Shown here: one piece after another, positions 4,653 to 63,018 of the stretch | Layout of the letters: the number at the start of each line of letters is the position of its first letter | Numbering within the stretch: position 1 is the stretch's first letter | From: an archaeon | Lineage (GTDB): Archaea; Nanobdellota; Nanobdellia; Pacearchaeales; UBA284 | Direction of reading: 5' to 3' | DNA length: 64,000 bases | NCBI GenBank assembly: GCA_020343435.1 | Contig: CP070794.1 | Span: 126,413 to 190,412, forward strand | Position numbers and translations under genes: made by a program | Notes under the pieces: model-generated | What the model saw: only the letters and a program-made list of their open reading frames with translations | Database searches by the model: none | What the model was told of the DNA's origin: nothing

Positions 4653-4726
4653 TGGGAAGACGGGGATTTGAACCCCGGACTCCATGGTCTTCAGCCATGT
4701 GCTCTCCCAGGCTGAGCTACCTTCCC
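4653..4726 (-). tRNA. tRNA-Phe (GAA)
   Basis: Reverse complement GGGAAGGTAGCTCAGCCTGGGAGAGCACATGGCTGAAGACCATGGAGTCCGGGGTTCAAATCCCCGTCTTCCCA. It has a 7-bp acceptor stem, anticodon loop CTGAAGA and a GTTCAAATC T-loop. No CCA is encoded. Confidence 0.9.
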
Positions 4727-16718: not shown

Positions 16719-17140
16719 TCTAATTTTAATTCCTCCTGTTCTCCAGCTTCTCTAATCTTTTCTATAGTAACTGTTCCCCCTGGAATAAGAGGTTCCACAT
16801 CATTAATATAAGGTGTTCCTCTCGACGCTGTGAATTTAGTTTCACTCCCTCTTAAAGTTTTAACTACAAAACCATATCCAGAATCAGACATTAAGATAGA
16901 ATACTCTTTTCCAGTAATTTTTTTAGGTAATGTAAACTCTCTAGAATAATTTGGAGGGGATCCCGAAGCTAAAGTTATTTCTTGTTGTAGAAAATTTGCA
17001 AAATCATTTAAAGATTCTTGTTCATTTTTCTCTCTTGCTAAAGAAGTATTAAAATTAGCTGAAGCAATCATTATTACTACTAAAAAAATAACTGCTGAGA
17101 CTAATAATGTGAATTCAATTGTTACTTGTCCTTTTTTCAT
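16706..17140 (-). CDS. Type IV pilin (archaeal, Q-x-S/T-x-E-F class; KKG|QVTIEFTLLVSAVIFLVV)
   Basis: The QxTxEF motif after KG is characteristic of EppA/PibD-processed archaeal pilins (DUF361-like). 144 aa. Confidence 0.65.
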   Translation of the reverse strand: MKKGQVTIEFTLLVSAVIFLVVIMIASANFNTSLAREKNEQESLNDFANFLQQEITLASGSPPNYSREFTLPKKITGKEYSILMSDSGYGFVVKTLRGSETKFTASRGTPYINDVEPLIPGGTVTIEKIREAGEQEELKLDCQT

Positions 17141-17141
17141 T

Positions 17142-17600
17142 TTATTGATTTGTTTTGGTTACCTCAACATAAATCCCATTAGAATCATTCTTTGCTTCCA
17201 AAGTCAGAGTCTTAAAACCTGCCTTAGATAAACTGGTTTGGACACCCCCTCCATCCTCTATTCTTCCTTGAGTATCATAAATCATATCTGATCTCGCTGT
17301 TCCTTTGATAGTAACTTTAAAATGGATGCCAAAAGGGGAAGTATCTAGAAACTCTACACTATAAACGCTCTCAGGAATAGTTACTTGAATTGTTGCCTTA
17401 GAAGGAGGACCTAAAAAGTAAATTGAATCGGCAGCTTCAGCAATTTTTTTTCCAGCTTTATCAACAGTATTGACTTTTATTTGAGTTTTTGCTGTTCCAG
17501 AATAATAGTAAGCGATACCTATTATGGCTATTAAAAGGAAAGTAATAAAACCAATAAGTAAAGCGAACTCTACACTTACCTGACCTCTTTTTTTTCTCAT
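17142..17600 (-). CDS. Type IV pilin (archaeal; RG|QVSVEFALLIGFITFLLIAII), probable major pilin
   Basis: Canonical class III signal peptide with Q+1, S+3, E+5, F+6. It is the first gene of the operon and 152 aa long. Confidence 0.7.
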   Translation of the reverse strand: MRKKRGQVSVEFALLIGFITFLLIAIIGIAYYYSGTAKTQIKVNTVDKAGKKIAEAADSIYFLGPPSKATIQVTIPESVYSVEFLDTSPFGIHFKVTIKGTARSDMIYDTQGRIEDGGGVQTSLSKAGFKTLTLEAKNDSNGIYVEVTKTNQ

Positions 17601-34733: not shown

Positions 34734-37514
34734 CTAAAGAATGAATTCTGGCACTTCATAAGGATAAACTATTATAGCACAAGTATCATTCCCATTATCC
34801 CATTTATCCTTACATTTAATATAATAAGGATCACTAATCTGCCATGGTGCTGAGTGTTTAAACTTATCTGCTGAGGACATTGGAGTCCCATCACTAAAAT
34901 TATATGCACAGGATCCCGATCTTAAACTGTAAACACAACTTGCTTCATCATCTGTTTCTATTACTAAACTATTTCCAAAAGCTCCAAATGCAGGATCATT
35001 CATATGATACATTCTAATAACTTCTGGAGGAGTAATATCTTTAACAATAGAGAAAGAAGTTGTAAAGTGATTAACTTCTAAATTACCAGCATCTCTACAT
35101 CTTACAAATAAATAATGTGGTTTTCCTTCATCGGGGGTTGCATTTAATTCTTCAGATACAATTCCAATATGTGTTTGTGTAAATACTTCATCTAAGAAAT
35201 TCATCTCATCCCATAAGATATTATTAACTGCTCCTTGAGTCCATTGCCTTGTATTAATCAAATACTTACAATAAGTATTGTGAGAAGTATTAACAACTAA
35301 CTCTGGTTGTCTTTCATAAGTTTCATAACTATCATTCCATGGAGGTTGAATAATCTCAATATCATAAGGTGGCATTGCAAGTAATGAATAAGGAACTGGA
35401 GGCATTTCATTATCTTCTTCATCTCTGCAAACAAACATTAATCTGTATAAACCAATGCTCTCATTTACATACTCAAACTGTTGCATTAGATCAAGTATGT
35501 GACTAATATCTTCTGAAGTTAGATTATTTCCATACTTTTCTCTTAAAGTTTCTTCATCCATACTTAAATCAATTTGTTCTCCACCATGTGTTAAATCAAG
35601 AGTTAAGTTAGCATGAGTACATTCTCCGCTAGTTACTAAACATCTTCCAGATTCATAAGGAGAAGGATTTGCTTTAACAAATTCAAATTCTTGTCCAAAA
35701 CTTGTCATATTATCCCAATCTACTGATAAAGGAACTGTATGTAATGGAGTACTATACCTGCACCTAACTTCATCTTCATCAAACCATAATTCAATTTCTT
35801 TTTCAGGAAGATTTGCTGGAATAAAACTCTGCCAAGGATCTATATAACATCTTCCAGCATCATGAGCTGTGATTAGATCGGGATAACAAGGATATCTCCA
35901 ATCTGGTTCATCTTCTAATTCAAACTTAACTTGATAAGGATTATCTTCTGGTTGATGAACTGCACCACAAACATCTTGACATTTTATAAAGATAGTATAA
36001 CTTTCTCCAGGGACCAAACCATCTGTAGGAGCATAGACATAATGTTCTGATGAGAATAAATCAGGATCAAATGTAGACATGTTTTCAAATGCTTGGTCTT
36101 TCTTAAAGCTCCATCTACATTTTGTAAACTCTGAATAAGGATTTGCTTCAGCAGAAGTATCTACATATAGTTCTATATATGCTGTATCCCAAGCAATTTT
36201 TCCTAGATCAACTCCCCCACTACTTCCTCCAGTCCAATCTTTATCTCTAACAACAGTTCCATTAATATCATATGCTATTGCATTTAGATAGATTATCTTT
36301 GGACTTCCTCTTTCAGGACAATCTCCAGAGATACATATAACTCTTCCAGGATCCTCTGTTTCAGCAGTAATACAATTAGGTCCTAAAATTGCGCATCTTT
36401 CTTCTGTACAAAAGAATCCTTCTTCATTACAAGATTCACATTGGCTTTCTGTTAAAGGTTGTTCAGGTGCGCAAGTTCCAACATGTGAAGCTAGTCTTAT
36501 TGAAGTTGCTATTCCATAAGTTAATGAAAAGATATCTACAACATACTCCCAAGCGCACCATCCATATCCAATATGTTCTCTATCACTACAATTGATTATT
36601 CTTTCCCAGAAAGATTTCTTTTCTTTTTTTCCTTCTTCAATCTCTTTTTGGATGTTATCTTTAATTTCATTGGCATTTTTATCATAATCGGTCCATGCTT
36701 CCCAAAACTCATTTATTTCTTCTTCTGTGAGTTCAACAGGTTTGCCTGCTACTTTTCTTTTAAGTCTTTCTCTTGTGCTTGTTGAAAGGCCAAGTTTATC
36801 TAAAAGAGCATTCTCTCCTCCTTCTTTTTCTGTTCCAAGTTTAAAAGCCTCTTCAATTTGTCCACTGATTTTATCAAAAACTCCCTCTTTTAATTGTGTT
36901 TCAAATGGGGATAAAATAGAATCTATTAACATTGAGACTAAAGGATTTCTAACAACATTTCCAGCACTACCAACTCCTGTTGCTGCTGGATTTGGATTTA
37001 ATGCTGAACCTTGATTATTGGTGGTTCCAGTAACAGTAAAATCTATCCTTTCTGGAACTGCTGTAGCATAAGAAACTTCATGTATCGGTAAGGTACCATG
37101 CATCTTATCTTTGTATACTTTAAGATTTTTTAATTCTACATAAAAAGTATCACCAACAGATTGACTTGCTTTTATCTTAAAACTAAAAGAATATTCTCTC
37201 CCCTCTCCTTTTTGTAATCTTATTACCTGGGGAGTTTTGGCTCCATTATGAACAATTAATTCTCCTCCTTCTAGACCATCATAATCTCCAGGAACTGTCA
37301 AAGAAATGATAATAGCATTATCTTGGCCCCTTTGGATTGTTTGTGGGGAAGCAGTAAAACTAACTTCTACATCTTCAGCAAATGAAAATGGTGGGATAAC
37401 CAGAGTTATTAAAAAAACTATCATAGCTAATGCTATTATTTTTTCAGCTGTTTTTTTATTTTTTAATTTCATGTTATGCATTCTCCCCACATTGTGTTTG
37501 GAGGGTGTACGCAT
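34734..37514 (-). CDS. Large secreted protein (926 aa) with N-terminal signal/TM anchor and many Cys; unknown function
   Basis: MKLKNKKTAEKIIALAMIVFLITLVIPPFSFA signal-like N-terminus. Numerous Cys pairs (..CSDREHIGYGWCAWEY.., ..CESCNEEGFFCTEERCAILGPNC..). It overlaps the upstream Cys-rich gene (37469). Confidence 0.5.
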   Translation of the reverse strand: MRTPSKHNVGRMHNMKLKNKKTAEKIIALAMIVFLITLVIPPFSFAEDVEVSFTASPQTIQRGQDNAIIISLTVPGDYDGLEGGELIVHNGAKTPQVIRLQKGEGREYSFSFKIKASQSVGDTFYVELKNLKVYKDKMHGTLPIHEVSYATAVPERIDFTVTGTTNNQGSALNPNPAATGVGSAGNVVRNPLVSMLIDSILSPFETQLKEGVFDKISGQIEEAFKLGTEKEGGENALLDKLGLSTSTRERLKRKVAGKPVELTEEEINEFWEAWTDYDKNANEIKDNIQKEIEEGKKEKKSFWERIINCSDREHIGYGWCAWEYVVDIFSLTYGIATSIRLASHVGTCAPEQPLTESQCESCNEEGFFCTEERCAILGPNCITAETEDPGRVICISGDCPERGSPKIIYLNAIAYDINGTVVRDKDWTGGSSGGVDLGKIAWDTAYIELYVDTSAEANPYSEFTKCRWSFKKDQAFENMSTFDPDLFSSEHYVYAPTDGLVPGESYTIFIKCQDVCGAVHQPEDNPYQVKFELEDEPDWRYPCYPDLITAHDAGRCYIDPWQSFIPANLPEKEIELWFDEDEVRCRYSTPLHTVPLSVDWDNMTSFGQEFEFVKANPSPYESGRCLVTSGECTHANLTLDLTHGGEQIDLSMDEETLREKYGNNLTSEDISHILDLMQQFEYVNESIGLYRLMFVCRDEEDNEMPPVPYSLLAMPPYDIEIIQPPWNDSYETYERQPELVVNTSHNTYCKYLINTRQWTQGAVNNILWDEMNFLDEVFTQTHIGIVSEELNATPDEGKPHYLFVRCRDAGNLEVNHFTTSFSIVKDITPPEVIRMYHMNDPAFGAFGNSLVIETDDEASCVYSLRSGSCAYNFSDGTPMSSADKFKHSAPWQISDPYYIKCKDKWDNGNDTCAIIVYPYEVPEFIL

Positions 37515-39607
37515 CTTAATCCTTCACGGCATTCTGAATCAGCAGGGCCCTTTATAGATATACAAGAATCTCCTCTTGATACAGAATTAAGTTCTACACA
37601 AACATCTTGATCAACTCTATTGACTACTGTAGTTCTACACTGGCCAGATTTACAATCACCATCACTAGAGCAAGGATCTGATCGCTCTTTCTTCTCTTCG
37701 GTTTGTTCCTCTTCTTTTTGTCTATTTCCATATCGTGGATTTTTTGAATAAAAAGGATTGTCAATATATCCAATTAAATCTACTAAAGCTAATGGGCTTG
37801 CTTTCCACATAAATTCTAAAGTTAATGGACCATACTTACTATATTTCTTGGTGAAACATCTTCCGTATTCTGCTAAGTATCCTCCAGGAATAGCAGTGGA
37901 ATGTAATGCTTGGACAGCACATTCTACTGGGATTAAGTTTAATCTCTCGAGTACTGTTGTTGGATAAAATGTTAAAACCCCTGTTCCAGCACTTAGCCAG
38001 AAGTTTTTCTGGAATTGATAATTTCCAAGACTATAACACTCTCCAGCATCACAAACATTCCATAGATCATCTCCTCCTTCTCCACATTTTCCTGCCTCCC
38101 AATTGGTGACTCCAGGAGGATAAACAGGAACACAGTTTCCATATTCTGTTCCAGGGAATACTCCATGCCAATCAACAACATACATACAATCTCCTGCTTC
38201 CATACATGTATCTCTATTACATCTATCAGAGATCAAAGAACCTAAACTTATGCTTAATAGATAACCTGTTGGCCAAAATGGTCTAAACACATCTCCTATC
38301 CACTCAATAACTAAAGAATTTTGTCTCCCACACGAAGTACAATTTTGCCAAACATTAGCTTTTTCCTTAGCATAACCATATCCACTCTCACTAACAGCAG
38401 GTTGGCATAATGTGTTTCTATCTAAACCCATTCCAAAAACTTTTAATTCCCCCTCTTCACATTCTAGATATTGATTTTGCAATCCTGTACTTCTATCACC
38501 CATCCTTGCAATATCTTCTTTTCCTTCTCCTCTCTCAAAAGAACCATAATAATTATAACACTTTTGTTCTCCATGCCTTAAACTAAAAGGTTCATCATTT
38601 ACTTTGGTGACAATTCTTTTATTGGTTTCAAATCCCCAGAATTTTGCATCAATAACTTCAATTTCTTGACTACCTTCTAAATCTATATTATTACAAGAAA
38701 CTTGTTTACAATAAGGATAAGTTTTTGCTACTTCATCTGAAGTATCATCATCTGAAAGAAGATTGCAACTTTCTTCTTTACAAATTTTACAAATATATCC
38801 TTCAGCAAAATTACAACTATTATAATTTATTTCATCTCCCAAACCATTTGTAAAATTTATTCCCAACCCAGATTCAGGAGCACATCTTTCTTGTTGCCCT
38901 CTATTATCATATAAACATATTTTATTTTCATCTCCTAATTCATATTGACCACAAGAAATTCTTTGTTCACCAACATTATCACAACCAACAACTTCTGAAC
39001 ATTGTACTCCTTTAAAGAAATCTTCTACAGTTCCCCCCATATCTGCACATTGTTCAAAATTAACATAATAACATCCATCTGAAACTTTACAACATCCTTT
39101 TGATTTGCTTCTACAGTTAGCATATGTCTCTGTTTGACATCTAGCTCTACAAGAAGTATAACTTTCTCCTTCTTTGCATTCACATTCTGTAAATTCAAAT
39201 TCATTTCCTGCTGCTAACTCTTCACAAATTTTATATTGTTCAGCTTGACAATTAACACTACATCCTCCTAACTTACATGCTGGAACCTCTTGTAAATCTG
39301 TTACTCTAGCAACATGTCTACCATAAACCTCACATTCTGCTTTATATTTTCCTAATTCACACTGTCCTTCTCTTGGAACACAAGCACCAAGTTGACAAAA
39401 ACTAACTTTAGAACAATCTGTCTCTAAAAAACTTGGAAAACTTTGTTTTCTTGCTCCAGGAGCACACAAATCATCTGTTGTTTCAACACAATATCTCCCA
39501 GCATTGTCTTTTTCACAACAAACAGGTGCAGGAACAGAACTAACATTAACTGTAAGTATGATTACAAATATAATACCTATCAATAAAAAAATTCCTGCTT
39601 TTTTCAT
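37469..39607 (-). CDS. Giant cysteine-rich secreted protein (712 aa; about 9-10% Cys by eye)
   Basis: Signal peptide MKKAGIFLLIGIIFVIILTVNVSS, then a dense Cys pattern throughout (..PVCCEKDNAGRYCVETTDDLCAPG.., ..CKICKEESCNLL..). Confidence 0.5.
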   Translation of the reverse strand: MKKAGIFLLIGIIFVIILTVNVSSVPAPVCCEKDNAGRYCVETTDDLCAPGARKQSFPSFLETDCSKVSFCQLGACVPREGQCELGKYKAECEVYGRHVARVTDLQEVPACKLGGCSVNCQAEQYKICEELAAGNEFEFTECECKEGESYTSCRARCQTETYANCRSKSKGCCKVSDGCYYVNFEQCADMGGTVEDFFKGVQCSEVVGCDNVGEQRISCGQYELGDENKICLYDNRGQQERCAPESGLGINFTNGLGDEINYNSCNFAEGYICKICKEESCNLLSDDDTSDEVAKTYPYCKQVSCNNIDLEGSQEIEVIDAKFWGFETNKRIVTKVNDEPFSLRHGEQKCYNYYGSFERGEGKEDIARMGDRSTGLQNQYLECEEGELKVFGMGLDRNTLCQPAVSESGYGYAKEKANVWQNCTSCGRQNSLVIEWIGDVFRPFWPTGYLLSISLGSLISDRCNRDTCMEAGDCMYVVDWHGVFPGTEYGNCVPVYPPGVTNWEAGKCGEGGDDLWNVCDAGECYSLGNYQFQKNFWLSAGTGVLTFYPTTVLERLNLIPVECAVQALHSTAIPGGYLAEYGRCFTKKYSKYGPLTLEFMWKASPLALVDLIGYIDNPFYSKNPRYGNRQKEEEQTEEKKERSDPCSSDGDCKSGQCRTTVVNRVDQDVCVELNSVSRGDSCISIKGPADSECREGLRCVHPPNTMWGECIT

Positions 39608-40431
39608 TCTCTACTTATAGCAAACTGAAATTTAAATGGGTTTTCTCCATCTCTTGTTGGTTCTGATTCTAATATAACAACTCCAACATTAAATGAACTT
39701 GGGTGATGTATTCCATTAATCTTGATATTTCTATGTTGTTCATATAAAGCAGTTTGGTAATGTTGCTTTACTAATCCTTCAAATTTCTCTCCTGCAATTT
39801 CTGAATTAACAATATCTTGAGCAACTTCTAAAAGATCCTTGAATGGAATGGATAATATAACATCTTTTTGATTAATTTTTTGAGTTGTAGTTCCAGTAGC
39901 ATATTTTTTTGAAACAGTTATTGGCCAATCAACACTTATAACAATTTTATCATTAGTAATCTCTGCTTCAAAATCTTTTTCTTCAGGTTCTACTCCAATT
40001 TGTCTTTTAAAAGAAGAGAAATCGTTTAAACAACTCTCAATTTCTTCGTATCCTTCTTCTTCTAAGGCTAACTGGAATTCTTGTTCTATCATCTCCAAAG
40101 AAGGTAATCTATTAACTAATTTATTTCCACCAAATTTATCCATTACAACAACATATTGGTCTTCCCCCCACAAAAACGCATAAACATGGCTCCATCTGTA
40201 ATAACCAGCTTGTTTTCCTAATGTAATAAAAATATTTTCACTAGTTTCAGAAACACAATCATAAATAGCATCTCTTAATGGTTCAATTTGGCTTGCCAAA
40301 AGTTCTCCTGCTTTTTCTTCACTTGTAAATCTGTCTCTAATAGAAGGCCATAAGAATATAGCAATTAATGCCACAGCAACAATGATCACTGCGATGATTA
40401 TGAATAAAGTAGTTTGTCCTCTTTTATACAT
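39604..40431 (-). CDS. Pilin-like protein with class III signal peptide (KRG|QTTLFIIIAVIIVAVALIAIF), 275 aa
   Basis: Canonical basic residue, G, then Q+1 and a hydrophobic helix. First gene of the operon with the two Cys-rich secreted proteins. Confidence 0.5.
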   Translation of the reverse strand: MYKRGQTTLFIIIAVIIVAVALIAIFLWPSIRDRFTSEEKAGELLASQIEPLRDAIYDCVSETSENIFITLGKQAGYYRWSHVYAFLWGEDQYVVVMDKFGGNKLVNRLPSLEMIEQEFQLALEEEGYEEIESCLNDFSSFKRQIGVEPEEKDFEAEITNDKIVISVDWPITVSKKYATGTTTQKINQKDVILSIPFKDLLEVAQDIVNSEIAGEKFEGLVKQHYQTALYEQHRNIKINGIHHPSSFNVGVVILESEPTRDGENPFKFQFAISRE

Positions 40432-40481: not shown

Positions 40482-41213
40482 CTAATCCTCTTCTCCACGT
40501 GGAGCAAGAATAAAACTCAATTCAAAATTATCTGTTTTAAATTCAAATCTTGCAGGATACTCGTTAGAATAAAGGACATTAACTCTATCTGCAAGTTTGG
40601 ATGCTTTAGCAAATTTAACAAGATAATCTAAACTATATTTTGCTTTTGAAACTTTTTCTGTTTGTATTTTAACTTCGTCTGAACTAAACTCTGTTTTTGA
40701 AGAATGCAGTGTTCCTTTAGCTTCAATAACAAAAGTGTTTGGATCTACATTAAAACTGCAAGAATCTGCAACAATGGCAGCATCATTAACTATATCTAAA
40801 AAGTTTAAAGAATCTATGCCAACCAAAGAATCAAAATTAAAGTTAGAAACTTTCTTCTCTTCACCCTCAACATTGATTAAAGCTAATCTGAAAGTTCTCT
40901 TAGCCTTATCTTCTATATGAACCTTTAATGAATTATCTTCTCTTTCTAAAGATAAAGAAGCGCTAATAGGAACTCTTCTTAATACTTGTTTAAAATCTTC
41001 TAGATTTAATCCTAAAACCTCCTCCTTATCAACCTCAAACTTAGAAAAAGTTTTTGTTGGAATCTTTAAACTAACCAAAGCAACATTAGCAGGATCAACA
41101 GCAGAGATATAAAACCCATCTTTAGTAATCTTGGCATTTACCTCTAAAACTAGTTCTGAGATTAGAGAGACAATATCTGTCAGAATCTTGGGAGTATCTA
41201 ATTTTAATAACAT
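40482..41213 (-). CDS. pcn: DNA polymerase sliding clamp PCNA
   Basis: 243 aa; ..FKQVLRRV.. and the overall two-domain pattern typical of archaeal PCNA. Confidence 0.85.
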   Translation of the reverse strand: MLLKLDTPKILTDIVSLISELVLEVNAKITKDGFYISAVDPANVALVSLKIPTKTFSKFEVDKEEVLGLNLEDFKQVLRRVPISASLSLEREDNSLKVHIEDKAKRTFRLALINVEGEEKKVSNFNFDSLVGIDSLNFLDIVNDAAIVADSCSFNVDPNTFVIEAKGTLHSSKTEFSSDEVKIQTEKVSKAKYSLDYLVKFAKASKLADRVNVLYSNEYPARFEFKTDNFELSFILAPRGEED

Positions 41214-41312: not shown

Positions 41313-42653
41313 ATGGAAGTTGAGAAGATAAAACGAATTGCAAGAAAGTATTATTCAAGGAAAGATATCCAAAAAGTACTGTTTGAACAAGCTAAGAATA
41401 GAGAAATAATCCCAAGATATGTTAAAAGAGATGAAAAAATGGTGACTAAAGACACAATTCTTATGGGAAAAAGACCAGATACATTAGAATATCTTGGGGA
41501 TTTGATAGGATATGTGGAAAGAGGAGCTACAAGTTTTCATGTTTCTGAAGAATTTTGGCAAGACCCTCTACAATTAAAAACAGCATTAACACAACAGGCA
41601 CTTAACAAATTAAGACTAGGTTGGGATTTGATACTAGATATAGACTGTCCCTATTTAGAATATAGTAAGATAGCAGCTTTTCTGTTGATAGAAGCTTTAT
41701 ATTTCCATGGGATTAAAAAAGTGGGATTAAAATTCTCTGGAAAAAAAGGGTGGCATATTGGAGTTCCCTTTGAAGCATTTCCTAAGAGAGTCCAAAACAT
41801 AGATGTTAAAGGATTCTTTCCAGAAGGACCAAGGATTATAGCAGCTTATTTGAAAGATATGATAAAAAAAGGTCTTGCTGAAAGAATGTTGGAGATGTCT
41901 AGTCTAAAAGAGATATCAAGATCAATGGGAAAACCAGAGAAAGATCTTTTGGATGATAAAAATCAGTTTAATCCTTATTCTGTTTTAGAAGTAGATACTG
42001 TTTTGATCTCCTCAAGACATCTTTATAGGATGGCTTATTCATTACATGAAGTTTCAGGATTATCTAGTATAGTTATTAGACCAGAGCAATTAAGATCCTT
42101 CCATATTGGGTGGGCAAAACCTGAAAGAGTTTTACCAAAGCCATTTTTACCTGTTCCAGAAAAAGAAGAAGCAAAAGAATTATTAATCCAGGCTTTAGAT
42201 TGGGTAGCTAGACAAGAACAAAGAAAAACTTTTGTTAAAAAAGAAAAATTTTCTCCAGTAAAAACTATTAAAATAAAAGAACTTAAACCAGAACTTTATC
42301 CTCCTTGTATTCAAAATATTTTACCAGGAATAAAAAAAGATGGTAGAAAAAGAGCATTATTTGTTTTAATAAATTATTTCCGTTCATTAGGAATGGAATT
42401 CAATGATATAGAAAAAATATTAACAGACTGGAATAAGAAAAATTATAATCCATTAAGAGGGGGATATGTGAAAACTCAATTAAACTGGTTCAAGAGACAA
42501 TCTGTAAAATTACCTCCAAACTGTAAAAATTATTATCAAGACTTAGGAATTTGTTTTCCAGATAGTTTATGTAACAAAATAAAAAATCCTGTAACTTATG
42601 TTGTAAGAAAAGCTAGATTTTCTAAAGTGAGAGGAAAAAAGGCTAAAAAATGA
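41313..42653 (+). CDS. Single-chain DNA primase: PriS catalytic core fused to a PriL-type Cys-rich (Fe-S) C-terminal domain
   Basis: PriS motifs ..WDLILDIDCPY.. (DxD) and ..FSGKKGWHIGVPF.. (SGxRGxH). C-terminal 4 Cys (..PPCIQN..PPNCKNYYQDLGICFPDSLC..) and a ..RKRALFVLINYFRSLG.. helix resembling the PriL-CTD. Confidence 0.65.
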   Translation: MEVEKIKRIARKYYSRKDIQKVLFEQAKNREIIPRYVKRDEKMVTKDTILMGKRPDTLEYLGDLIGYVERGATSFHVSEEFWQDPLQLKTALTQQALNKLRLGWDLILDIDCPYLEYSKIAAFLLIEALYFHGIKKVGLKFSGKKGWHIGVPFEAFPKRVQNIDVKGFFPEGPRIIAAYLKDMIKKGLAERMLEMSSLKEISRSMGKPEKDLLDDKNQFNPYSVLEVDTVLISSRHLYRMAYSLHEVSGLSSIVIRPEQLRSFHIGWAKPERVLPKPFLPVPEKEEAKELLIQALDWVARQEQRKTFVKKEKFSPVKTIKIKELKPELYPPCIQNILPGIKKDGRKRALFVLINYFRSLGMEFNDIEKILTDWNKKNYNPLRGGYVKTQLNWFKRQSVKLPPNCKNYYQDLGICFPDSLCNKIKNPVTYVVRKARFSKVRGKKAKK

Positions 42654-42707
42654 AAATATCTGTTTTTTAACCGAAAACATTTTAAAGCTCTCAAGCTTAA
42701 AAGACAC

Positions 42708-45053
42708 ATGAAAAAAGAGTTGATAGTATGTATATTAGTTGTATTATTACTTTTATCACCAGTCCTTATTCATGCTGAAACAGAACAAGAACAAGTTGAT
42801 AAAGCATATTCTTGGTTAGTTAACAACACTGTTAATAAATGGGATGGATTAAACACAAGACAAAATGCCTTTTCTTTGTTGGCTTTAGGATGTAACACAA
42901 CATATAAAATTCAAGGCAATGATTCTTTATGGGAAAGAAGTTATAGTTCTGGAGGAAGAATATGTTGGGCAGAGAATACAAGTTCTCCAAACTGTGAGTT
43001 GGTTGAAACTTCTTTGGCTATCATGGCTTTAGATGAGATTGATGAGAATTACACAGATGCAAAGAATTGGCTTGTAGAAAGAAATAAAACACAAACTGAT
43101 CTTTATTGGTATTTACAATTAGATGTTGAAAGAGATTACAATGCAACATGTGAAGTTTATTATTTGGGAAGAAATGACTCTGTACAAATTAACGAAGATA
43201 AAACTGTTGCTTTGATCAGTGGTTCTGAATGCTTAAATGTTTATCAGCCAAATCAAGATTATTATTTTGAGTTTACAAGAAATGAAAGATGCCTTGGTGC
43301 AACTTATGAAATAAAATGTTTTAGTAGTTCTCCTTACTTTACTGCAACCATGCTTTACAAAAACACATCTGCTGGAAGACAATGGTATGTTTCTTCAGAA
43401 ACTGGTGTAGGAATCCCTGGAACAAGAGGAGAAAGAGGAGAAGAATCTGATGTTATTGAATTACAAGTTCCAAGTTATTGTCTAACTGAATTAGGGAGTA
43501 ACTCATGTAGTTATGAAGGAACTGCTTGGGGAGCTTATGTTCTTTCAAGAATAGGAGATACAGATTCAGCAAACATGTTCATACCTTATCTTGTGATTAA
43601 TGCTGAAAGAAATCCAGAATTATTCCCTTCAGCATTTTTAGCAGCATTGATTGATGGAAGGTTTACAGATGAAGCAGCAAATTTACAAAGAAATGATGGA
43701 TTCTGGATTATACAAAATGCTGGAGGTGGGGTTTTATATGGAAGATTATATACCACAGCTCTAGCAAAATTAATGTTAGGTTCTTCAGCTGATTTTACAA
43801 AAGCTAAAGAATGGGTATTAAGTAAACAAAAAGATCCAGGTTATTTTTCAGATGCTGATGTTGTTGGAGGAGAAGATAGACTTAGAGATAATGCTTTTGT
43901 GTTGTGGACATTCTGGCCAGATCAATGCCCAGGATATGGTGGGGGTATAGGAAACGAATCTCAATGCGAAAGAAGAGGTGGAATCTGTAGGCTTTCTTGT
44001 GATTCAAGAGATGAAGAAAGAACATGGGATTGTGATTCAGGATTAACATGTTGTGTTCCACCAGGAGGAGGATTAGAAAATTGTACAATGGCTGGAGGAG
44101 CATGTAGGATAGATGAATGTGAATCTGGAGAATTTTTCTGGGAAACTGGTTTCTGTGTAGAGGAAGACAGAATTTGTTGTAGAGATTATTTTGATTTCAG
44201 ATGTGAACAGCTTGAAGGGGAATTCTGTAATTCAACTCAAACATGTAGTGGAGAGAGAGTAGAAACTGTTGATTCATATGTTGGTGGTTCTGGATTATGT
44301 TGTTTGGGAGATTGTTTGGGAGATGATCCTAGCAACAAATACTGTTATGAAATTGGAGAAGAATGTGATCCTGGTGAGACCTGTATTAATGATGCAAGAA
44401 TAGAAATAGGATTTACACAAACCCTGGATGGAGATTGTTGTACTGGAAAATGTGTAAAAGATGATTATTGTAGTAGTATTGGAGAAGAATGTTCTTCTGG
44501 AGAGTGTAGGGGAAGTATTATCAAAACAATAGATACTGATGAGTGTTGTGATGGATCTTGTTTACAAACTTGTGATGACCTTGGAGGAGAACTCTGTTTA
44601 ACTGGCCAAGGATGTACTGGAAGATTTAGAACTGCTTCAAATGGGAGATGTTGTATTGATGGAACATGCACAACAAGTCCAGGAGAAGAAGGAGGATTCT
44701 CATTAATATGGATAATAATCATAATAATAATTGTAATTGTAGCATTATATTTCTTTGTTTTCAAAAAGAAACCAACTAAAAAAGAAGAAGGAGAAGATCT
44801 GTTTTCATTTACTAAACCAAAAAGACCACCAACACAACCACCAGCATTAAAACTACCACAACAAAGACCATTCCCCCAAACAAGACCACTACCAAGAATG
44901 CCAATGATGCCAAGACCAACTTTAAAACCAGCAACATTACCTAAACCAAAAACAACTACAACTAGAAAAACAACAACAAGGAGAAAAAGAACAACAAGTA
45001 AAACAGATCTTGAAAAGACATTAGCAAAGTTAAAGAAATTAACAAAAAAGTAA
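42708..45053 (+). CDS. Secreted, C-terminally membrane-anchored surface protein: prenyltransferase/squalene-cyclase-like alpha/alpha-toroid repeats + Cys-rich CC-G-C repeats + TM + basic Pro/Thr-rich tail
   Basis: Signal peptide; ..LQRNDGFWIIQNAGGG.. (QxxDGxW repeat motif); repeated ..GLCCLGDCLGDD.., ..GDCCTGKCVKDD.., ..DECCDGSCLQTC.., ..GRCCIDGTCTTS..; TM IWIIIIIIIVIVALYFFVF; tail PKRPPTQPPALKLPQQRP..TTTTRKTTTRRKR. Confidence 0.55.
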   Translation: MKKELIVCILVVLLLLSPVLIHAETEQEQVDKAYSWLVNNTVNKWDGLNTRQNAFSLLALGCNTTYKIQGNDSLWERSYSSGGRICWAENTSSPNCELVETSLAIMALDEIDENYTDAKNWLVERNKTQTDLYWYLQLDVERDYNATCEVYYLGRNDSVQINEDKTVALISGSECLNVYQPNQDYYFEFTRNERCLGATYEIKCFSSSPYFTATMLYKNTSAGRQWYVSSETGVGIPGTRGERGEESDVIELQVPSYCLTELGSNSCSYEGTAWGAYVLSRIGDTDSANMFIPYLVINAERNPELFPSAFLAALIDGRFTDEAANLQRNDGFWIIQNAGGGVLYGRLYTTALAKLMLGSSADFTKAKEWVLSKQKDPGYFSDADVVGGEDRLRDNAFVLWTFWPDQCPGYGGGIGNESQCERRGGICRLSCDSRDEERTWDCDSGLTCCVPPGGGLENCTMAGGACRIDECESGEFFWETGFCVEEDRICCRDYFDFRCEQLEGEFCNSTQTCSGERVETVDSYVGGSGLCCLGDCLGDDPSNKYCYEIGEECDPGETCINDARIEIGFTQTLDGDCCTGKCVKDDYCSSIGEECSSGECRGSIIKTIDTDECCDGSCLQTCDDLGGELCLTGQGCTGRFRTASNGRCCIDGTCTTSPGEEGGFSLIWIIIIIIIVIVALYFFVFKKKPTKKEEGEDLFSFTKPKRPPTQPPALKLPQQRPFPQTRPLPRMPMMPRPTLKPATLPKPKTTTTRKTTTRRKRTTSKTDLEKTLAKLKKLTKK

Positions 45054-45105
45054 ATATGTTTCTATAATTGAAAAAGTTTATTAATACTATAGATCTAAAA
45101 ATAAG

Positions 45106-47454
45106 ATGGGAAAAAGAGTTAATTCAAAAATATTAATATTTGTTTTTGCAATAATCTTTACGATAGCAATCACAAGTTTTGTTTCTGCAAGCTGTATAGA
45201 TATGAAATTAGCAAGAGAATCTTATTTGCCCCAAGAAACACTCCAGTTAGAGATAGATGCTGAATTAACAAGAGATTTAACAACAAATGATTTATTTTTG
45301 TATAGGGGTTCTTCTTTATTACCAAATGTTTTTTTTATGACTAAACTAACAGAAACAAAATATTTTGTATGGACAGATTTACCAGGCACAGAAGGAGATT
45401 ATAAGTTAATGGTAAGAGGAGTTTGTGAGGGAGGTTTATCTTTTGCTGAAAAAGAGTTTCCAGTAGTTAAACCAATATCAACTCTTTATGAGTCTCTTCC
45501 TACAGAAAACTTCAACACACTAACATTAAATGAACATATAATTACTGCAGCAGCTCTTTCATTTAGGCCAGAAGCAATAAGCAATGCACAGAATGATTTT
45601 CTTGTTAGGGGAAATTCTTGTTTTAACCAGGAATGCACAACAAAACAATATGCTTTATCTGCACTTGCTTTCCCAACCATAAGAAATGATATGTTGGATA
45701 GATTAACTGCAGCACAAAATTCAAGATTAGGAAATTGGTCTTTAGTTGTAAATTCAGGATCAGATCAACAATGTGATCTGACAATAGGAGAACAAACAGA
45801 GCAAGTTGATATTAATACTGGAGAACAAACACTTGATCTTGATTTAAATTCAACATCAGAACAAATAAATGTTATTCTTAATTGTTCTAGTAGTACAATA
45901 ACTTCATTAAACTACCAATATAAAGAAACAGAAAAAGAGATTGGAATAGAAAATGGAGAATTAGTATCTTTTACAATTAATAATCAAAAATGTTGGGGGT
46001 CTGGGATAAAAACAACCTGTGATGAAGAATCCACAACTTTTGCAATAGTAGCTTTGAAGTATCTTGGAAAGACTCTTGAAAATGGAACTTCAGTATGGCT
46101 TAGCAATAATAATGATTTGATTATGGCAAAAGCCGCTCATTACTTATTAACTAAAAACAATGAAACAGCAACTGTTCTTTTAACAAGTCAGATGTTTAGT
46201 GGGGGATGGCCAAATCAATTAGGAAGTTATGTTACAGATATGATTACAACAAGCATAGTCTACTTCTCATTACAACAAGATTATCCAGAAGAACTAGAGA
46301 AAACAGAAGATAGATTAAAATCATTGTTCCCTTCCTCAAACCTGGAAGAAAAAGCTTATACTTTATTTTTTGTTTTCCCTTCAAACAAAATAGAACCAAT
46401 TAGCAGAGTTTGGCCAGGAATGGTGAAAACAGAGAGTAGGGGCAGTTTTTATCTTATCTTAGAAAATAAAGGAACAGAGAATATAACTGTTAATGGTTAT
46501 TTCATGAATTCTACAATTGAGATAAATCTTCCAATAAACTCTCTTAAAAGTTTAACCATATCCATCCCAAGAGTTGCAACCCCTGATGAAAGAGCTGTGA
46601 ATTATGATCTTGATCTGATCCAAAGAACGGAGTTTGGAGGAAGGAGAGACTACAAAATTCCGGTAGTTATTTTTACAGAACTTGGAGATGGGATTTCTGG
46701 ACAAACAAACACAAGTGAACAAGAGATAAATGAAACTCAACAACAAAATATAATTAATCAAACACAGAATGGTAGTTTAAATAATCAAACAACCAATATA
46801 ACTGAACCACTTTTACAAGATAAGTTTAGTTTTGTTGAAGAAGAAATAGAAGAAAATATTTCTGAGAGAACTAATTTCACAATAACTTTACACCTAGCTA
46901 ACCTATATAATGAAGCTGTAGAAGATATAAGAATAATTTCAAGTATAGGTTTGTTGGGAATTCTTAATATAAATCCTTCTTCATTAGAAAGAATGGAACC
47001 TAAAACAAGAGAAGAGATTAATCTATCAATAACCCCTCAATTTGGAGGAAGTTATATTGGAACAATAACTGCTGAAGGAAAATTGAATAATCAAAGAATT
47101 TTATCAAATATTTCTGTTTCTTTAATAGTAAACCTTGAAGGTAATGTAACTTGTGCTGAAATGAATGGTACAGATTGTAGTGAAGAGGGGTTTACATGTA
47201 AGGGGGATAGAGAAGTAATGGCTTCTGATACCTTTCATTGTTGTTTGGGCAAATGTGAAAAGGAGGGAGGATCTAACACATTAGCTATAATTATCATCAT
47301 AATAGTTATAATTATCTTATTACTAGTTGTGTTTGTTCTAAAAAAGAAACCTAAAAAAGATATGGGCGATGTTTTGGATGAAGTACAAAACAAATATCAA
47401 AGAAGATTTAAACCATCTCCAGAAATAGGTCCAAGAGGCACTGGAAGACTCTAG
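45106..47454 (+). CDS. Paralog of the preceding surface protein (alpha/alpha-toroid repeat ..QMFSGGWPNQLGSY.., C-terminal Cys cluster, TM anchor, basic tail)
   Basis: Same architecture and similar length (782 vs 781 aa); ..CAEMNGTDCSEEGFTCKGD..FHCCLGKCEKEGG.. then AIIIIIIVIIILLLVVFVLKKKPKK. Confidence 0.55.
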   Translation: MGKRVNSKILIFVFAIIFTIAITSFVSASCIDMKLARESYLPQETLQLEIDAELTRDLTTNDLFLYRGSSLLPNVFFMTKLTETKYFVWTDLPGTEGDYKLMVRGVCEGGLSFAEKEFPVVKPISTLYESLPTENFNTLTLNEHIITAAALSFRPEAISNAQNDFLVRGNSCFNQECTTKQYALSALAFPTIRNDMLDRLTAAQNSRLGNWSLVVNSGSDQQCDLTIGEQTEQVDINTGEQTLDLDLNSTSEQINVILNCSSSTITSLNYQYKETEKEIGIENGELVSFTINNQKCWGSGIKTTCDEESTTFAIVALKYLGKTLENGTSVWLSNNNDLIMAKAAHYLLTKNNETATVLLTSQMFSGGWPNQLGSYVTDMITTSIVYFSLQQDYPEELEKTEDRLKSLFPSSNLEEKAYTLFFVFPSNKIEPISRVWPGMVKTESRGSFYLILENKGTENITVNGYFMNSTIEINLPINSLKSLTISIPRVATPDERAVNYDLDLIQRTEFGGRRDYKIPVVIFTELGDGISGQTNTSEQEINETQQQNIINQTQNGSLNNQTTNITEPLLQDKFSFVEEEIEENISERTNFTITLHLANLYNEAVEDIRIISSIGLLGILNINPSSLERMEPKTREEINLSITPQFGGSYIGTITAEGKLNNQRILSNISVSLIVNLEGNVTCAEMNGTDCSEEGFTCKGDREVMASDTFHCCLGKCEKEGGSNTLAIIIIIIVIIILLLVVFVLKKKPKKDMGDVLDEVQNKYQRRFKPSPEIGPRGTGRL

Positions 47455-47903
47455 GATTTCTTATCCTGTGTTTCTTTTATTTTGTTCTTTAATGCTTCTC
47501 TTTGAGCAATCAAAGTTCTTGTTAACATATTAAGTTTATGTAATCTCATAGAAAGATCATTGAGAAGACCATTGGCATCACTTAAATTAAATTTTAGATT
47601 TTTGGGGTGTAAGATCTCTACAGAAGAAGGCATATAATCAAATATTATTTCCATAACCCTGGCCATATTAACAGTTACAACTTCTACTTCTGCGAAACTT
47701 GAAAACATTTCCTCAGAGTCTTTTGCTGGTTTTGCTTCATGAGATTTAGATTTTACAATATTAACATTCTTTTCTTCACCTAATTTTTTTATTATTGTAT
47801 TCAAGACATCTGTGATATGTTCTTTAGGTTTACCAATTATCTCAAACAACATGTAAACATGTAACCATCCTTTTGCTAACTTATCTTTCAATTCATCTTC
47901 CAT
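47451..47903 (-). CDS. Hypothetical cytoplasmic protein (150 aa)
   Basis: No signal peptide or TM helix; acidic and helical. No family recognised. Confidence 0.35.
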   Translation of the reverse strand: MEDELKDKLAKGWLHVYMLFEIIGKPKEHITDVLNTIIKKLGEEKNVNIVKSKSHEAKPAKDSEEMFSSFAEVEVVTVNMARVMEIIFDYMPSSVEILHPKNLKFNLSDANGLLNDLSMRLHKLNMLTRTLIAQREALKNKIKETQDKKS

Positions 47904-47927: not shown

Positions 47928-49346
47928 TTAAATTTTTTTGATGATTAAATATATAGTTAAAAGTAAACAAATAGTTACAAAAAAATAGGGTAGTATGTTA
48001 AGAACTCCTGAACTTTTATCAGAAACGGCAGATCCTGTGATTGGAGACCGGTACTCTTCATTTTGAGTTTGGGGATTTGTAGAGATAGACTCTTGTTCTT
48101 CTTCATTAAACAATTCTTGAGAGTCTCCCTTTATTTCCTCCACGGTTTGTTCATGACATGAATCAAGATTTATTGAATCTTTGTCTTTTTCCCCAAGTCC
48201 TTCCACAATAATATAATATTTTCCGCTTTCTTCTTTACATTTAAGGTTTATCAAAAAAGATCCTTCATATTCAACATACTTTGACCTAAGATGTATTTTT
48301 GATTCATCACTAACTTTCTTTTCATCAGCATCTTCTACATAAGCTTTAATAGAATATTTTGATGTATCTCCTTTATAGATTTCAACTTCTATTTCAATGG
48401 TCTCCCCAAACTTGGCTGAATTGGGAGATTTGCTAATTTTAATTGTAGACTCTCCTTCCCTTTCTTCTTCAGAAGCAGAATCACAAATAACAGAGATATA
48501 TTCTGCATCAAAATCTGTATAACTAGTGGTGTTTGTTTTTCTTAGTCTTGGCATTAATATTGCTTCTCCTGAAAAGTTTTCTATTTTAAAAGTTAGGGTA
48601 GATTCTCCATAATTCATTGAAGAATTCAAAGCATTTAGAACATAAGACATAGTAGATAACCATTTAGAACCATCCCAAACTCTACCAACACGCTTATCTT
48701 CATCTAAAGATTTTATATCCACCTTAACATCAAACAAGGAATCTTGAAGATTAAATGTTTTAAAAGTTATTTGAAAACTTTCTCCACAATTAACTTCTGA
48801 AGGATAAGTTAATTCTATTCTTTCTGGTTCTGGAACATAAATAGAACAATTATTCCAAGACCCAGGAGTTGGAGAACATTCTTTCCATGAAGAATTATAA
48901 AAACTCCAAGAATCCCCAGAACTTTTGATTGAAGAATTCCAAGAAAAATCACTAATTAAGATATCTTGATCATCAAAAAGAAAAATAGATTCTTCAGAAT
49001 CTTTTAACCCATTCCCAATAGTTGTAAGTTCAAAACAAGAGACATTAATTTCAGAACATCCTGTCTCATTGTTTACATTTGAATCCACAATTAAAATAAA
49101 TGAATTTGGTAGGATTGTTAAGTTAAAAGAATCGTTACTATTAAGATCTCCCACTTTCCAATTTGTTAAATTAACTGTGAAACTTCCAGAATTATAGATT
49201 TCTACCCACTCGTCTTCCATACTGTTGTTTGAATGAGGCATAATTTCATTAAGATAAATCTCTGCAGAAACAAGGTTACAAAACAAGAATAAAAATATCA
49301 GAATTAATGTTAGTTTACCTCCAGACCCCAGGAATTTTTTCACCAC
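47928..49346 (-). CDS. Secreted lamin-tail-domain (LTD) protein with C-terminal TM anchor
   Basis: Signal peptide; ..EIYLNEIMPHSNNSMEDEWVEIYNSGSFTVNLTNWKV.. is the LTD signature (yINEimpnp...EwiElyN...L.gW.l). C-terminal TM LNILPYFFVTICLLLTIYLII. Confidence 0.6.
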   Translation of the reverse strand: MVKKFLGSGGKLTLILIFLFLFCNLVSAEIYLNEIMPHSNNSMEDEWVEIYNSGSFTVNLTNWKVGDLNSNDSFNLTILPNSFILIVDSNVNNETGCSEINVSCFELTTIGNGLKDSEESIFLFDDQDILISDFSWNSSIKSSGDSWSFYNSSWKECSPTPGSWNNCSIYVPEPERIELTYPSEVNCGESFQITFKTFNLQDSLFDVKVDIKSLDEDKRVGRVWDGSKWLSTMSYVLNALNSSMNYGESTLTFKIENFSGEAILMPRLRKTNTTSYTDFDAEYISVICDSASEEEREGESTIKISKSPNSAKFGETIEIEVEIYKGDTSKYSIKAYVEDADEKKVSDESKIHLRSKYVEYEGSFLINLKCKEESGKYYIIVEGLGEKDKDSINLDSCHEQTVEEIKGDSQELFNEEEQESISTNPQTQNEEYRSPITGSAVSDKSSGVLNILPYFFVTICLLLTIYLIIKKI

Positions 49347-61843: not shown

Positions 61844-61853
61844 TTTTTAACTA

Positions 61854-61926
61854 TAGCCCCGCCAGGATTCGAACCTGGGTCCCTAGCTCCAAAGGCTAGT
61901 ATACTTGACCACTGTACTACGGGGCT
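61854..61926 (-). tRNA. tRNA-Gln (TTG)
   Basis: Reverse complement AGCCCCGTAGTACAGTGGTCAAGTATACTAGCCTTTGGAGCTAGGGACCCAGGTTCGAATCCTGGCGGGGCTA. Anticodon stem CTAGC/GCTAG, loop CTTTGGA, T-loop TTCGAAT. Confidence 0.85.
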
Positions 61927-61980
61927 ATGAAAATATTATGTCAATAACGTTTTTAAAACCTTTTTGTCTAGAATATTCAT

Positions 61981-62054
61981 GCCTGCGTAGCTCAGCTGGC
62001 TAGAGCGGCTGCCTTGTAAGCAGTAGGTCGGGAGTTCGAATCTCTCCGCAGGCT
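61981..62054 (+). tRNA. tRNA-Thr (TGT)
   Basis: GCCTGCGTAGCTCAGCTGGCTAGAGCGGCTGCCTTGTAAGCAGTAGGTCGGGAGTTCGAATCTCTCCGCAGGCT. Acceptor GCCTGCG/CGCAGGC, D-arm GCTC..GAGC, anticodon loop CTTGTAA. Confidence 0.85.
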
Positions 62055-62945: not shown

Positions 62946-63018
62946 GGGCCTGTGGTCTAGTGGTTATGACGTCCGCTTGACGTGCGGGAGGTCCCAGGTT
63001 CGAGCCCTGGCAGGCCCA
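62946..63018 (+). tRNA. tRNA-Val (GAC)
   Basis: GGGCCTGTGGTCTAGTGGTTATGACGTCCGCTTGACGTGCGGGAGGTCCCAGGTTCGAGCCCTGGCAGGCCCA. Acceptor GGGCCTG/CAGGCCC, anticodon stem TCCGC/GCGGG, loop TTGACGT, T-loop TTCGAGC. Confidence 0.85.

Follow-up and report, generated by a model that had tools for sequence, protein, structure and literature searches.

Two adjacent genes, called A and B here, are the subject of this analysis. They lie in a stretch of 64,000 nucleotides (nt) from an archaeon of the Pacearchaeales (lineage UBA284), namely positions 126,413 to 190,412 of contig CP070794.1 in assembly GCA_020343435.1. This whole stretch is referred to as the window; its G+C content is about 31%, and positions are counted from its first letter. 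The two genes are co-directional, with an intergenic gap of 52 nt. Their products are identical to UCD21099.1 ('hypothetical protein JSW08_00945') and UCD21100.1 ('hypothetical protein JSW08_00950'), respectively. A first-pass annotation, made from the letters of the sequence, had described two proteins of roughly 780 amino acids (aa) with signal peptides, and this description holds: the open reading frames (ORFs) encode 781 and 782 aa, and both products carry AxA-type cleavage sites. The structural models and profile comparisons given below support a terpenoid-cyclase/TED-type alpha/alpha toroid as the head of each protein. We lean, with modest confidence, towards a conserved two-protein surface module in which these heads act as non-enzymatic recognition or binding elements. 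The parts of the two genes are as follows.

42708..45053, + strand: gene A, a 781-aa ORF with a 100% match to P0001; predicted type-I membrane glycoprotein with a toroid head, a Cys-rich stalk, a transmembrane (TM) helix and a Pro/basic tail
42708..42776, + strand: signal peptide of A, aa 1-23 (...SPVLIHA/ETEQ); hydrophobic segment, cleavage motif read from the sequence
42777..43082, + strand: N-terminal helical half of the A toroid head, aa 24-125; helices 26-124 with a predicted local distance difference test score (pLDDT) >90, conserved Cys pair C86/C96
43083..43487, + strand: beta-rich domain inserted in the A toroid, aa 126-260; strands, pLDDT >90, conserved C148, C204 and C258
43488..43922, + strand: C-terminal helical half of the A toroid head, aa 261-405; from the model, the alignment and the squalene-hopene cyclase profile match
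43965..44180, + strand: two 6-Cys units of A, aa 420-449 and 459-491; spacing C-x6-C-x3/4-C-x10/11-C-x5/6-CC, beta-defensin-like
44202..44669, + strand: four tandem 6-Cys units of A, aa 499-536, 546-582, 588-618 and 622-654; spacing C-x6/7-C-x4/5-C-x11-17-CC-x3/4-C, DUF7107-like
44697..44765, + strand: TM helix of A, about aa 664-686, WIIIIIIIVIVALYFFVF; from hydrophobicity and the model, with KKKP after it
44766..45050, + strand: cytoplasmic tail of A, aa 687-781; Pro-rich, pLDDT <50 except for helix 767-780
45006..45050, + strand: predicted terminal amphipathic helix of A, aa 767-781, DLEKTLAKLKKLTKK; from the model and the family consensus
45106..47454, + strand: gene B, a 782-aa ORF, the same sequence as P0040; predicted type-I membrane glycoprotein, an immunoglobulin-like (Ig-like) array with an embedded toroid head
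45106..45189, + strand: signal peptide of B, aa 1-28 (...TSFVSA/SCID); hydrophobic, model helix 6-26
45190..45465, + strand: beta-sandwich 1 of B, aa 29-120; strands 31-120 with pLDDT >90, kept in short B orthologues
45466..46401, + strand: toroid head of B, aa 121-432; from hhalign to the A head, the register of Cys and Trp, and the model
45733-45981, + strand: beta insertion in the B toroid, aa 210-292; counterpart of the insertion at aa 126-260 of A
46402..47130, + strand: beta-sandwich 2 (aa 433-540), an N/Q/T-rich helical linker (541-573) and beta-sandwich 3 (574-675) of B; from the model, kept in short B
47152..47256, + strand: single 6-Cys unit of B, aa 683-717, CCLGKC; spacing C-x7-C-x6-C-x13-CC-x3-C, the type of the four repeats of A
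47275..47451, + strand: TM helix (aa 724-746) and short tail (747-782) of B; from hydrophobicity and the model

For A, AlphaFold2 was run on an alignment of 37 sequences. The resulting model has a mean pLDDT of 81.5, rising above 90 over aa 30-400, and it runs from helices (26-124) through a beta insertion (126-260) to helices again (269-402), after which come small beta units strung along the Cys-rich region, the TM helix and a disordered tail that ends in a helix (767-780). The AlphaFold model of B has a mean pLDDT of 89.0, with values above 90 over the head. It consists of a beta-sandwich (31-120), a toroid with a beta insertion (124-422), two further sandwiches (433-540 and 574-675), the Cys unit, the TM helix and a short helix. 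When the whole A model was compared with the PDB by Foldseek, all matches at a probability of about 0.9 or more belonged to the terpenoid-cyclase/TED toroid superfamily. These were drimenyl-diphosphate synthase 7xr7 (E 1.9e-3, probability 1.00), 8zg1 and 7xq4 (also 1.00), 6sbe and 8pak (0.97-0.99) and complement C4Adg 1hzf (0.92), and they include MstE and squalene-hopene cyclase (8pak). The Foldseek matches of B included A2M, TEP1, ECAM, C3b and C5; Ig-like/ASH arrays, transglutaminase C-terminal domains and TEP/C3 proteins were found as well.

The same superfamily is reached from the sequence side. A head-only profile of 17 A-type and B-type sequences, run on the sequences of the PDB, found squalene-hopene cyclase 1GSZ with a whole-sequence E of 1.1e-5 and four QW-repeat matches (profile positions 261-340). 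This was the sole significant profile match in the PDB, the weaker ones being other class II cyclases, TEP1 and C4A. In the search of PDB sequences, full-length A and the A stalk alone gave no match, and full-length B gave one non-significant match (E 1.6). The first-pass annotation had proposed the toroid from a QW signature in both proteins, and the models, Foldseek and the 1GSZ match all bear it out. The signature itself is present as QRNDGFW in A (327-333) and QMFSGGW in B (362-368), with a Trp that is invariant across both families. Further, the C-terminal head half of A carries C267-x-Y-E270-G-T-x-W, PYL, FPSAFL, the QRNDGFW copy, YTTALA, a second QW-like repeat (KEWVLSKQKDPGYF) and LRDNAF, and the A-family consensus also holds the second QW copy as AKxYLLxxQxxxGxW.

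Domain databases give a fainter picture. Outside the TM region, neither A nor B has a match in Pfam or NCBIfam, and in the 37 A-family members the Pfam scan yielded only sub-threshold matches of this kind: SQHop_cyclase_C in five, SQHop_cyclase_N in three and TED_complement in two. Among the families that had been suggested for checking the fold, PF00432 (prenyltransferase) drops out, as it has no match to A or B at E<=1 and is not among the best 25 of the 53 families matched by the 37 members. PF13243/PF13249 and TED survive as sub-threshold matches in some relatives; neither A nor B reaches the gathering threshold of PF13243/PF13249, and the best sub-threshold E in the family is 0.02-0.03.

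The relationship between A and B is a partial one. BLASTP of A against B is not significant, the best E of 0.21 falling in the Cys unit. Comparison of the two family profiles by hhalign aligns A 40-409 with B 131-442 at a probability of 99.25% (E 5.9e-20, 17% identity). When the two families are aligned together, the QW Trp (A W333 = B W368) and six Cys prove invariant and in register across both. A module of one 6-Cys unit followed by the TM helix is also common to the two proteins, while the three beta-sandwich domains of B have no counterpart in A. On these comparisons, A and B are read as distant paralogues in the head domain plus the membrane-proximal Cys unit, set in two otherwise differing architectures. 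The earlier description of tandem paralogues is, in this sense, right for the head and the Cys unit and wrong for the rest. A whole-gene tandem duplication is rejected, since BLASTP is not significant, only the head and one Cys unit are common, and a short form of B exists without a head.

This short form was seen when the gene next to A was examined in relatives. The sample comprised 57 ORFs lying between A and a gene for an MJ0538-like protein, taken from the best 80 of at least 242 loci in GTDB species-representative genomes. The gene in this slot is a homologue of B on the strand of A in 57/57 cases, with a median gap to A of 45 nt. Its product is about 416 aa long and matches the B profile over positions ~5-120, ~433-530 and ~560-775; the toroid region 121-432 of the profile is absent from all 57 ORFs. 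A CC-x-C unit stands directly before the TM helix in 51 of the 54 short B proteins with a detectable TM helix. In these loci, the common module therefore consists of an A protein, with a toroid head, a Cys-knot stalk, a TM helix and a long tail, and a B protein with three Ig-like domains, one Cys unit, a TM helix and a short tail.

Long B, with its toroid, is found in a clade of seven members of its own and, at a greater distance, in no fewer than two other proteins (P0038 and P0039); a profile search for further B homologues found no new ones. By neighbour-joining, the B heads are monophyletic, with P0039, a long B, as sister. Their mean distance is 0.91 to the co-resident A heads of the long clade as against 0.87 to other A heads. 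A recent duplication of the head within the clade is not supported, as the B heads are no nearer to the co-resident A heads. Monophyly, together with a near-equal distance (0.87-0.92) to all A heads, means therefore that the head copy of B is old or fast-evolving. The direction of change may be either a gain of the head by long B or its loss by short B.

Catalytic motifs of the known toroid families were looked for in the heads. The thioester motif CxEQ is missing from A and B, just as had been noted at first pass. Among 182 A-type sequences it occurs 31 times in 30 proteins, nearly always where a stalk Cys unit begins (TC-x-EQGG-xx-C) and never at a conserved head position. The cyclase motif DxDD is found in 22/182 A-type heads at scattered, unconserved positions. 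Where the cyclases have DxDDTA, the family consensus shows YDTALA at the aligned site and A shows YTTALA; therefore, even the single Asp is not kept in A. The motifs ETALA, YEGTLWA, YDTALA and RDTAF look like helix-capping repeats of a toroid rather than a catalytic site. An invariant C-x-x-E at a helix start (C267...E270 in A, C305...E308 in B) is superficially like CGEQ. Glu cannot form a thioester as Gln does. The thioester reading of this motif is rejected, because Glu stands where Gln is needed and the count of invariant Cys is even. The six invariant head Cys are most simply read as three disulfides, and C267, being one of this even number, as disulfide-bonded.

The stalk of A is built from Cys-rich units. 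The first two (aa 420-491) take the form of small beta units in the model, at pLDDT 61-88. Beta-defensins have the spacing type C-x6-C-x4-C-x9-C-x6-CC, which the units at aa 420-449 and 459-491 share by homology or convergence, and the likeness may be convergent; Defensin_beta_2 of Pfam gives sub-threshold matches in four family members (best E 2.5e-4). The four tandem units that follow have the cores CCLGDC, CCTGKC, CCDGSC and CCIDGTC and pLDDT 73-95. The first-pass annotation had counted four repeats of about 40 aa with a CC-x-G-x-C core. Four units of ~36-46 aa are indeed present in A (aa 499-654), but the CC units number six in total, two of them with other spacing, and B has one of its own. 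The named family compared with these units is PF23416 (DUF7107, gathering threshold 24.6 bits). The distant family members P0035, P0036 and P0037, whose CC-x3/4-C units match it, score 26.0-28.6 bits; A and B themselves lie below the threshold with no reported Pfam match to it, though their units share the Cys pattern. Stalk length is the main variable in the family, in which protein size varies between 307 and 1210 aa and the number of Cys between 9 and 106.

On the other side of the membrane, the two proteins differ. The tail of A is disordered and Pro/Thr-rich, with a net charge of +20 over 86 aa; that of B has 32 aa and a net charge of +2, with KKKPKK and a helix DVLDEVQNKY. An oligo-Ile TM helix with a strongly basic tail had been claimed for both proteins. 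The TM helix stands in both, and the basic Pro/Thr tail in A only. Across the 182 A-type sequences, tails have a median of 78 aa, a net charge of +14 and 18% Pro, and they end in the consensus E-L-[DE]-[DE]-[VT]-L-K-K-L-K-[ED]-M-[GS]-K. The hydrophobic moment of this terminal motif is 0.54-0.64, which is in the top 0.4-2% of shuffles. The tail helix of A fits membrane-surface binding or docking of a protein partner better than the nucleic-acid tethering proposed earlier. A cytoplasmic motif common to the A and B tails, L-[DE]-[DE]-V-[LQ]-K-K-[LY], was considered and rejected, as 0/54 short-B tails match it.

The predicted topology agrees with that of an extracellular head and Cys-rich stalk, a C-terminal anchor and a cytoplasmic tail, as first proposed. 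Each protein has a signal-like hydrophobic N-terminus with an AxA-type site (...LIHA/ETEQ in A, ...FVSA/SCID in B) and one C-terminal oligo-Ile TM helix with KKKP directly after it. The ectodomain of A holds 12 N-glycosylation sequons against 4.7+/-2.0 expected from composition-matched shuffles, and that of B 19 against 10.1+/-2.8; the tails of A and B hold none. Cys residues number 47 in A and 14 in B, and zero in either cytoplasmic tail. From the signals, TM helices, sequons and Cys placement together, A and B are therefore predicted to be type-I (N-out, C-in) surface proteins, probably glycosylated and disulfide-bonded outside the cell. They have the signal peptide, sequon-rich ectodomain and C-terminal TM anchor by which archaeal TM-anchored surface glycoproteins are recognized. 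No NCBIfam match above cut-off was obtained for an archaeosortase/PGF-CTERM or LPXTG-type sorting signal in A or B (LPXTG E 0.31). Anchoring by a sortase or archaeosortase is rejected on this ground and because the tails of 32-86 aa (family median 78) are not the very short basic ones of such proteins.

The head family is large. An exhaustive search of 1.84 billion representative sequences (clusters at 50% identity) with a hidden Markov model of the head returned 1066 clusters at E<=1e-3, 548 of them at E<=1e-30. The majority of members have 580-650 aa, and every named one is annotated as 'hypothetical protein'. Of the 182 A-type sequences, an N-terminal hydrophobic segment is present in 174 and a C-terminal TM helix in 173. 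The relatives encoded at the at least 242 GTDB loci belong, as far as the labels of the best 80 show, to Pacearchaeota, Woesearchaeota, Nanoarchaeota/Nanoarchaeia or an unclassified archaeon, with two exceptions. These are labelled 'Candidatus Paceibacterota bacterium' (L073, DAOTCN010000002.1) and 'Candidatus Aenigmarchaeum sp.' (L069, DYHK01000033.1); both bins are probably mislabelled or contaminated, because they carry the PCNA-primase-A synteny typical of Pacearchaeota and Woesearchaeota.

Gene order around A is strongly conserved and runs from a pilin-like gene ('up275') through PCNA, primase, A and one further gene to the MJ0538-like gene (PF27325). A surface protein with a lamin-tail domain (LTD) and a radical-SAM enzyme are often next after the MJ0538-like gene. 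A primase gene was detected in 65 of the 80 loci, an MJ0538 gene in 62 and a PCNA gene in 56. A literature search turned up no description of the A/B family, of DUF7107 or of extracellular toroid proteins in archaea.

The catalytic motifs of cyclases and thioester domains are lacking, and the family is large and occurs in hundreds of related archaea; A and B are therefore probably a binding or envelope module and not enzymes. In the explanation that we favour to a modest degree, A and B would form a co-oriented cell-envelope module of the Pacearchaeota/Woesearchaeota/Nanoarchaeota group (DPANN), both proteins being Sec-exported, N-glycosylated, disulfide-rich and type-I in the membrane. A would display a non-catalytic toroid head with its inserted beta domain atop a rigid stalk of 6-Cys knots on one TM helix, and, at the end of its long Pro/Arg-rich cytoplasmic linker, the conserved amphipathic helix would contact either the inner leaflet or a partner in the cytoplasm. 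B would be an Ig-like stalk array that, in this lineage, adds a strongly diverged toroid head of its own. A and B together, through these heads, would recognise a ligand or partner at the cell surface, in an adhesion or receptor role toward a host cell or an envelope component. The mechanism would not be one of terpene cyclisation, prenyl transfer or thioester-based protease trapping. Two points weigh against it. The function is read from architecture alone, and the conserved aromatic and acidic head residues Y269, E270, W274, Y294, W333 and Y348 are also compatible with an unrecognised active site. That A and B associate, that their role is binding rather than enzymatic, and what the ligand would be are likewise matters that we infer.

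Two-protein S-layers are common in archaea. The pair could accordingly be imagined as the S-layer or main envelope lattice of a SlaA/SlaB-like kind, with B as the membrane stalk and A, plus the B head in this lineage, as the outer canopy. Every genome sampled from the group, among the best 80 of the at least 242 loci, retains the pair, apparently as a single copy passed on vertically; both proteins are predicted glycoproteins with a C-terminal TM helix, and the Ig-like domains of B resemble the proposed SlaB-like anchors of Nanobdella. Yet A and B are each anchored in the membrane, a long conserved cytoplasmic tail like that of A is atypical for a canopy subunit, and an identity of 25-50% across the class, with invariant motifs, exceeds the conservation usual for S-layers. 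In Woesearchaeota, separately annotated S-layer genes are reported among the top transcripts (PMC11606122), which weakens this idea slightly further, and we regard it as rather unlikely. A toroid head may instead capture an isoprenoid, a lipid or another hydrophobic metabolite or cofactor from the host membrane by means of the cyclase cavity without catalysis, and so supply a cell unable to produce these for itself. The enzymes closest in fold hold C15-C30 isoprenoids within their toroid, the heads have lost the acid motif yet retain the aromatic-rich QW/YDTA framework, and transcobalamin-type carriers join a toroid to an adjoining beta domain. The family is, moreover, confined to genome-reduced DPANN described as host-dependent (PMC8204110). 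Against this, transcobalamin-like structures are not among the best 50 Foldseek matches of A; the TED of complement matches the structure just as well and does not bind lipids; and some Woesearchaeota encode isoprenoid pathways (PMC8204110) and yet carry the family. Capture of this kind is improbable on balance. In its fullest form, a dead cyclase/TED cavity would serve as an outward receptor for host isoprenoids, a hydrophobic metabolite or a cofactor, with the tail helix coupling capture to the cell interior, and for this, too, the chance seems slender.

Activity of the head as an extracellular enzyme, either a divergent class II terpenoid cyclase or an (alpha/alpha)6-barrel glycoside hydrolase/lyase working on the host envelope, would suit a fold that is common to cyclases, the invariant Y269-E270 and the nearly invariant acidic and aromatic head residues; DPANN have also been reported with large extracellular lytic enzymes (PMC8204110). 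It is very improbable, as there is no DxDD, the Asp of YDTALA is lacking in A, no enzyme family of Pfam or NCBIfam is matched above threshold, and no glycoside hydrolase is among the top Foldseek matches of A. Class II terpenoid cyclases (squalene-hopene cyclase, drimenyl diphosphate synthase, MstE) do share with A and B a helical-hairpin toroid with QW-type repeats (Q-x3-G-x-W after [AK]xxWLL). They are, however, cytoplasmic or monotopic beta-gamma didomain proteins, whereas A and B have a single toroid with a beta-rich insertion, fall below the Pfam thresholds, lack DxDD and are predicted to be exported, glycosylated and disulfide-bonded. The extracellular location would likewise make the role of a protein prenyltransferase beta subunit (PF00432) unlikely.

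An A2M/TEP-like protease trap, or a covalent adhesin acting via a thioester domain, is suggested by C4Adg among the matches of A; by A2M, TEP1, ECAM, C3b and C5 among those of B; by the sub-threshold TED_complement matches; and by the invariant C-x-x-E at a helix start. B, in addition, joins beta-sandwiches with a TED-like toroid, and the TED of A2M, complement C3/C4, insect TEP and bacterial ECAM is, as in A and B, an extracellular toroid shown with beta-sandwich domains. The missing CxEQ in both heads largely refutes this possibility. TED systems have CGEQ, a bait region and a TED nested in CUB, whereas in A and B there is neither a bait region nor a CUB-embedded TED; the topology is reversed, with the beta domain inside the toroid, and a C-terminal TM anchor is present. 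A also lacks an MG array. A thioester mechanism is, on these grounds, extremely improbable.

Recognition or binding by non-enzymatic heads, which remains the preferred reading, can be set beside the surface proteins known from related archaea. For cultivated DPANN, the candidate surface proteins are Ig-like arrays that are N-glycosylated and carry a TM helix at the C-terminus (bioRxiv 10.1101/2023.10.27.564410), and the DPANN surface proteins described in print are Ig-like arrays, pectin-lyase-like and lectin-like proteins and giants with murein-transglycosylase domains (PMC8204110; bioRxiv 10.1101/2023.10.27.564410). Short B and the non-toroid parts of B match, by described architecture, the Ig-like, TM-anchored kind, that is, SlaB-like proteins and the candidates of Nanobdella aerobiophila. 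A, on the other hand, is not an Ig-like array; its toroid head, 6-Cys-knot stalk and tail helix are undescribed for those proteins, again as compared by description.

To our knowledge, no member of the Pacearchaeota or Woesearchaeota has been cultivated. According to published accounts, both groups occur widely in groundwater, lakes and marine waters (PMC8204110, PMC11606122), and their lineage-specific families, mostly membrane-bound or extracellular, are without functional prediction (PMC8204110). One such family is now placed on a structural footing. We found no earlier description in the literature of the cyclase/TED head fold on an archaeal cell surface; it is a known fold in an unannotated, lineage-wide family, met in a new architectural and cellular setting. 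The pair is also a clear case of one surface head domain common to two partner proteins, and it offers a concrete target for the study of host recognition or nutrient capture. Further, the order PCNA-primase-A-B-MJ0538 is a strong synteny and phylogenetic marker for the group, which already flags the two likely mislabelled bins. No new biological principle would follow unless the lipid-capture or receptor reading were true. If the capture reading were true, A and B would be a lineage-defining host-exploitation device of Pacearchaeota and Woesearchaeota and a first molecular handle on the acquisition of membrane material by these uncultivated archaea.

The other features of the window that were assigned, including the direct neighbours of A and B, are the following.

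40482-41213, - strand: PCNA gene; from Pfam, archaeal neighbour of A-B
41313-42653, + strand: compact primase gene, 446 aa; weak Pfam matches to the small-subunit family (aa 133-253) and the large-subunit family (aa 284-373)
47451-47903, - strand: 150-aa cytoplasmic protein; orthologues carry PF27325 (MJ0538)
4652-4726: tRNA gene, Phe-GAA
34628-34698: tRNA gene, Trp-CCA
61853-61927: tRNA gene, Gln-TTG
61981-62054: tRNA gene, Thr-TGT
62946-63018: tRNA gene, Val-GAC

The 446-aa primase is identified from its two Pfam matches as a putative compact, fused PriS-PriL-type primase; a fused primase is known in Nanoarchaeum too. The MJ0538-like gene is convergent with B and overlaps its stop codon by 4 nt. 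TATA-like elements lie about 25 nt upstream of the ATGs of A (TTTTAAAG, 42679-42687, + strand) and B (TTTATTAA, 45076-45083, + strand). They would be compatible with separate A and B promoters and leaderless transcripts, but little weight can be given to them because the genome has 31% GC. A scan of the whole window with Rfam found, beyond the five tRNA genes, no family at gathering score.

Next to the MJ0538-like gene, a 472-aa protein (47928-49346, - strand) carries a lamin-tail domain (PF00932, E 1e-11), together with a signal-like N-terminus, a TM helix at the C-terminal end and a weak match to the A2M MG-like family PF00207 (E 4e-3). By these features it is predicted to be a third anchored surface protein at the A-B locus, and a gene with an LTD recurs in relatives with its relative position unchanged. 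Upstream of PCNA, a string of overlapping genes (34734-40431, - strand) encodes proteins of 275, 712 and 926 aa, for which the Pfam scan gave no match. The 275-aa protein has a class-III (type IV pilin-like) N-terminus (KRGQTTLFIIIAVIIV) and its gene is syntenic in 34/80 relatives; the 712-aa protein has a signal peptide and 7.7% Cys. The string may be a pilus or secreted-protein operon.

Farther away, a 1239-aa protein (12419-16138, - strand) combines a VWA_2 domain with a pilin-like N-terminus (KRGYFFTLDALFALVILL), and its 2.74 sequons per 100 aa exceed the density in every other protein of the window. Its gene is followed by three small ORFs (16125-17600) on the same strand, and the region 12419-17600 may be a type IV pilus-like adhesin locus. 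Lastly, the gene at 31057-33219 (+ strand) encodes a class II aminoacyl-tRNA synthetase with an OB fold, a tRNA-synt_2 domain (E 5e-79) and a C-terminal B3/4 domain (E 1e-21), which is an unusual fusion because the B3/4 domain normally belongs to the PheRS beta subunit.

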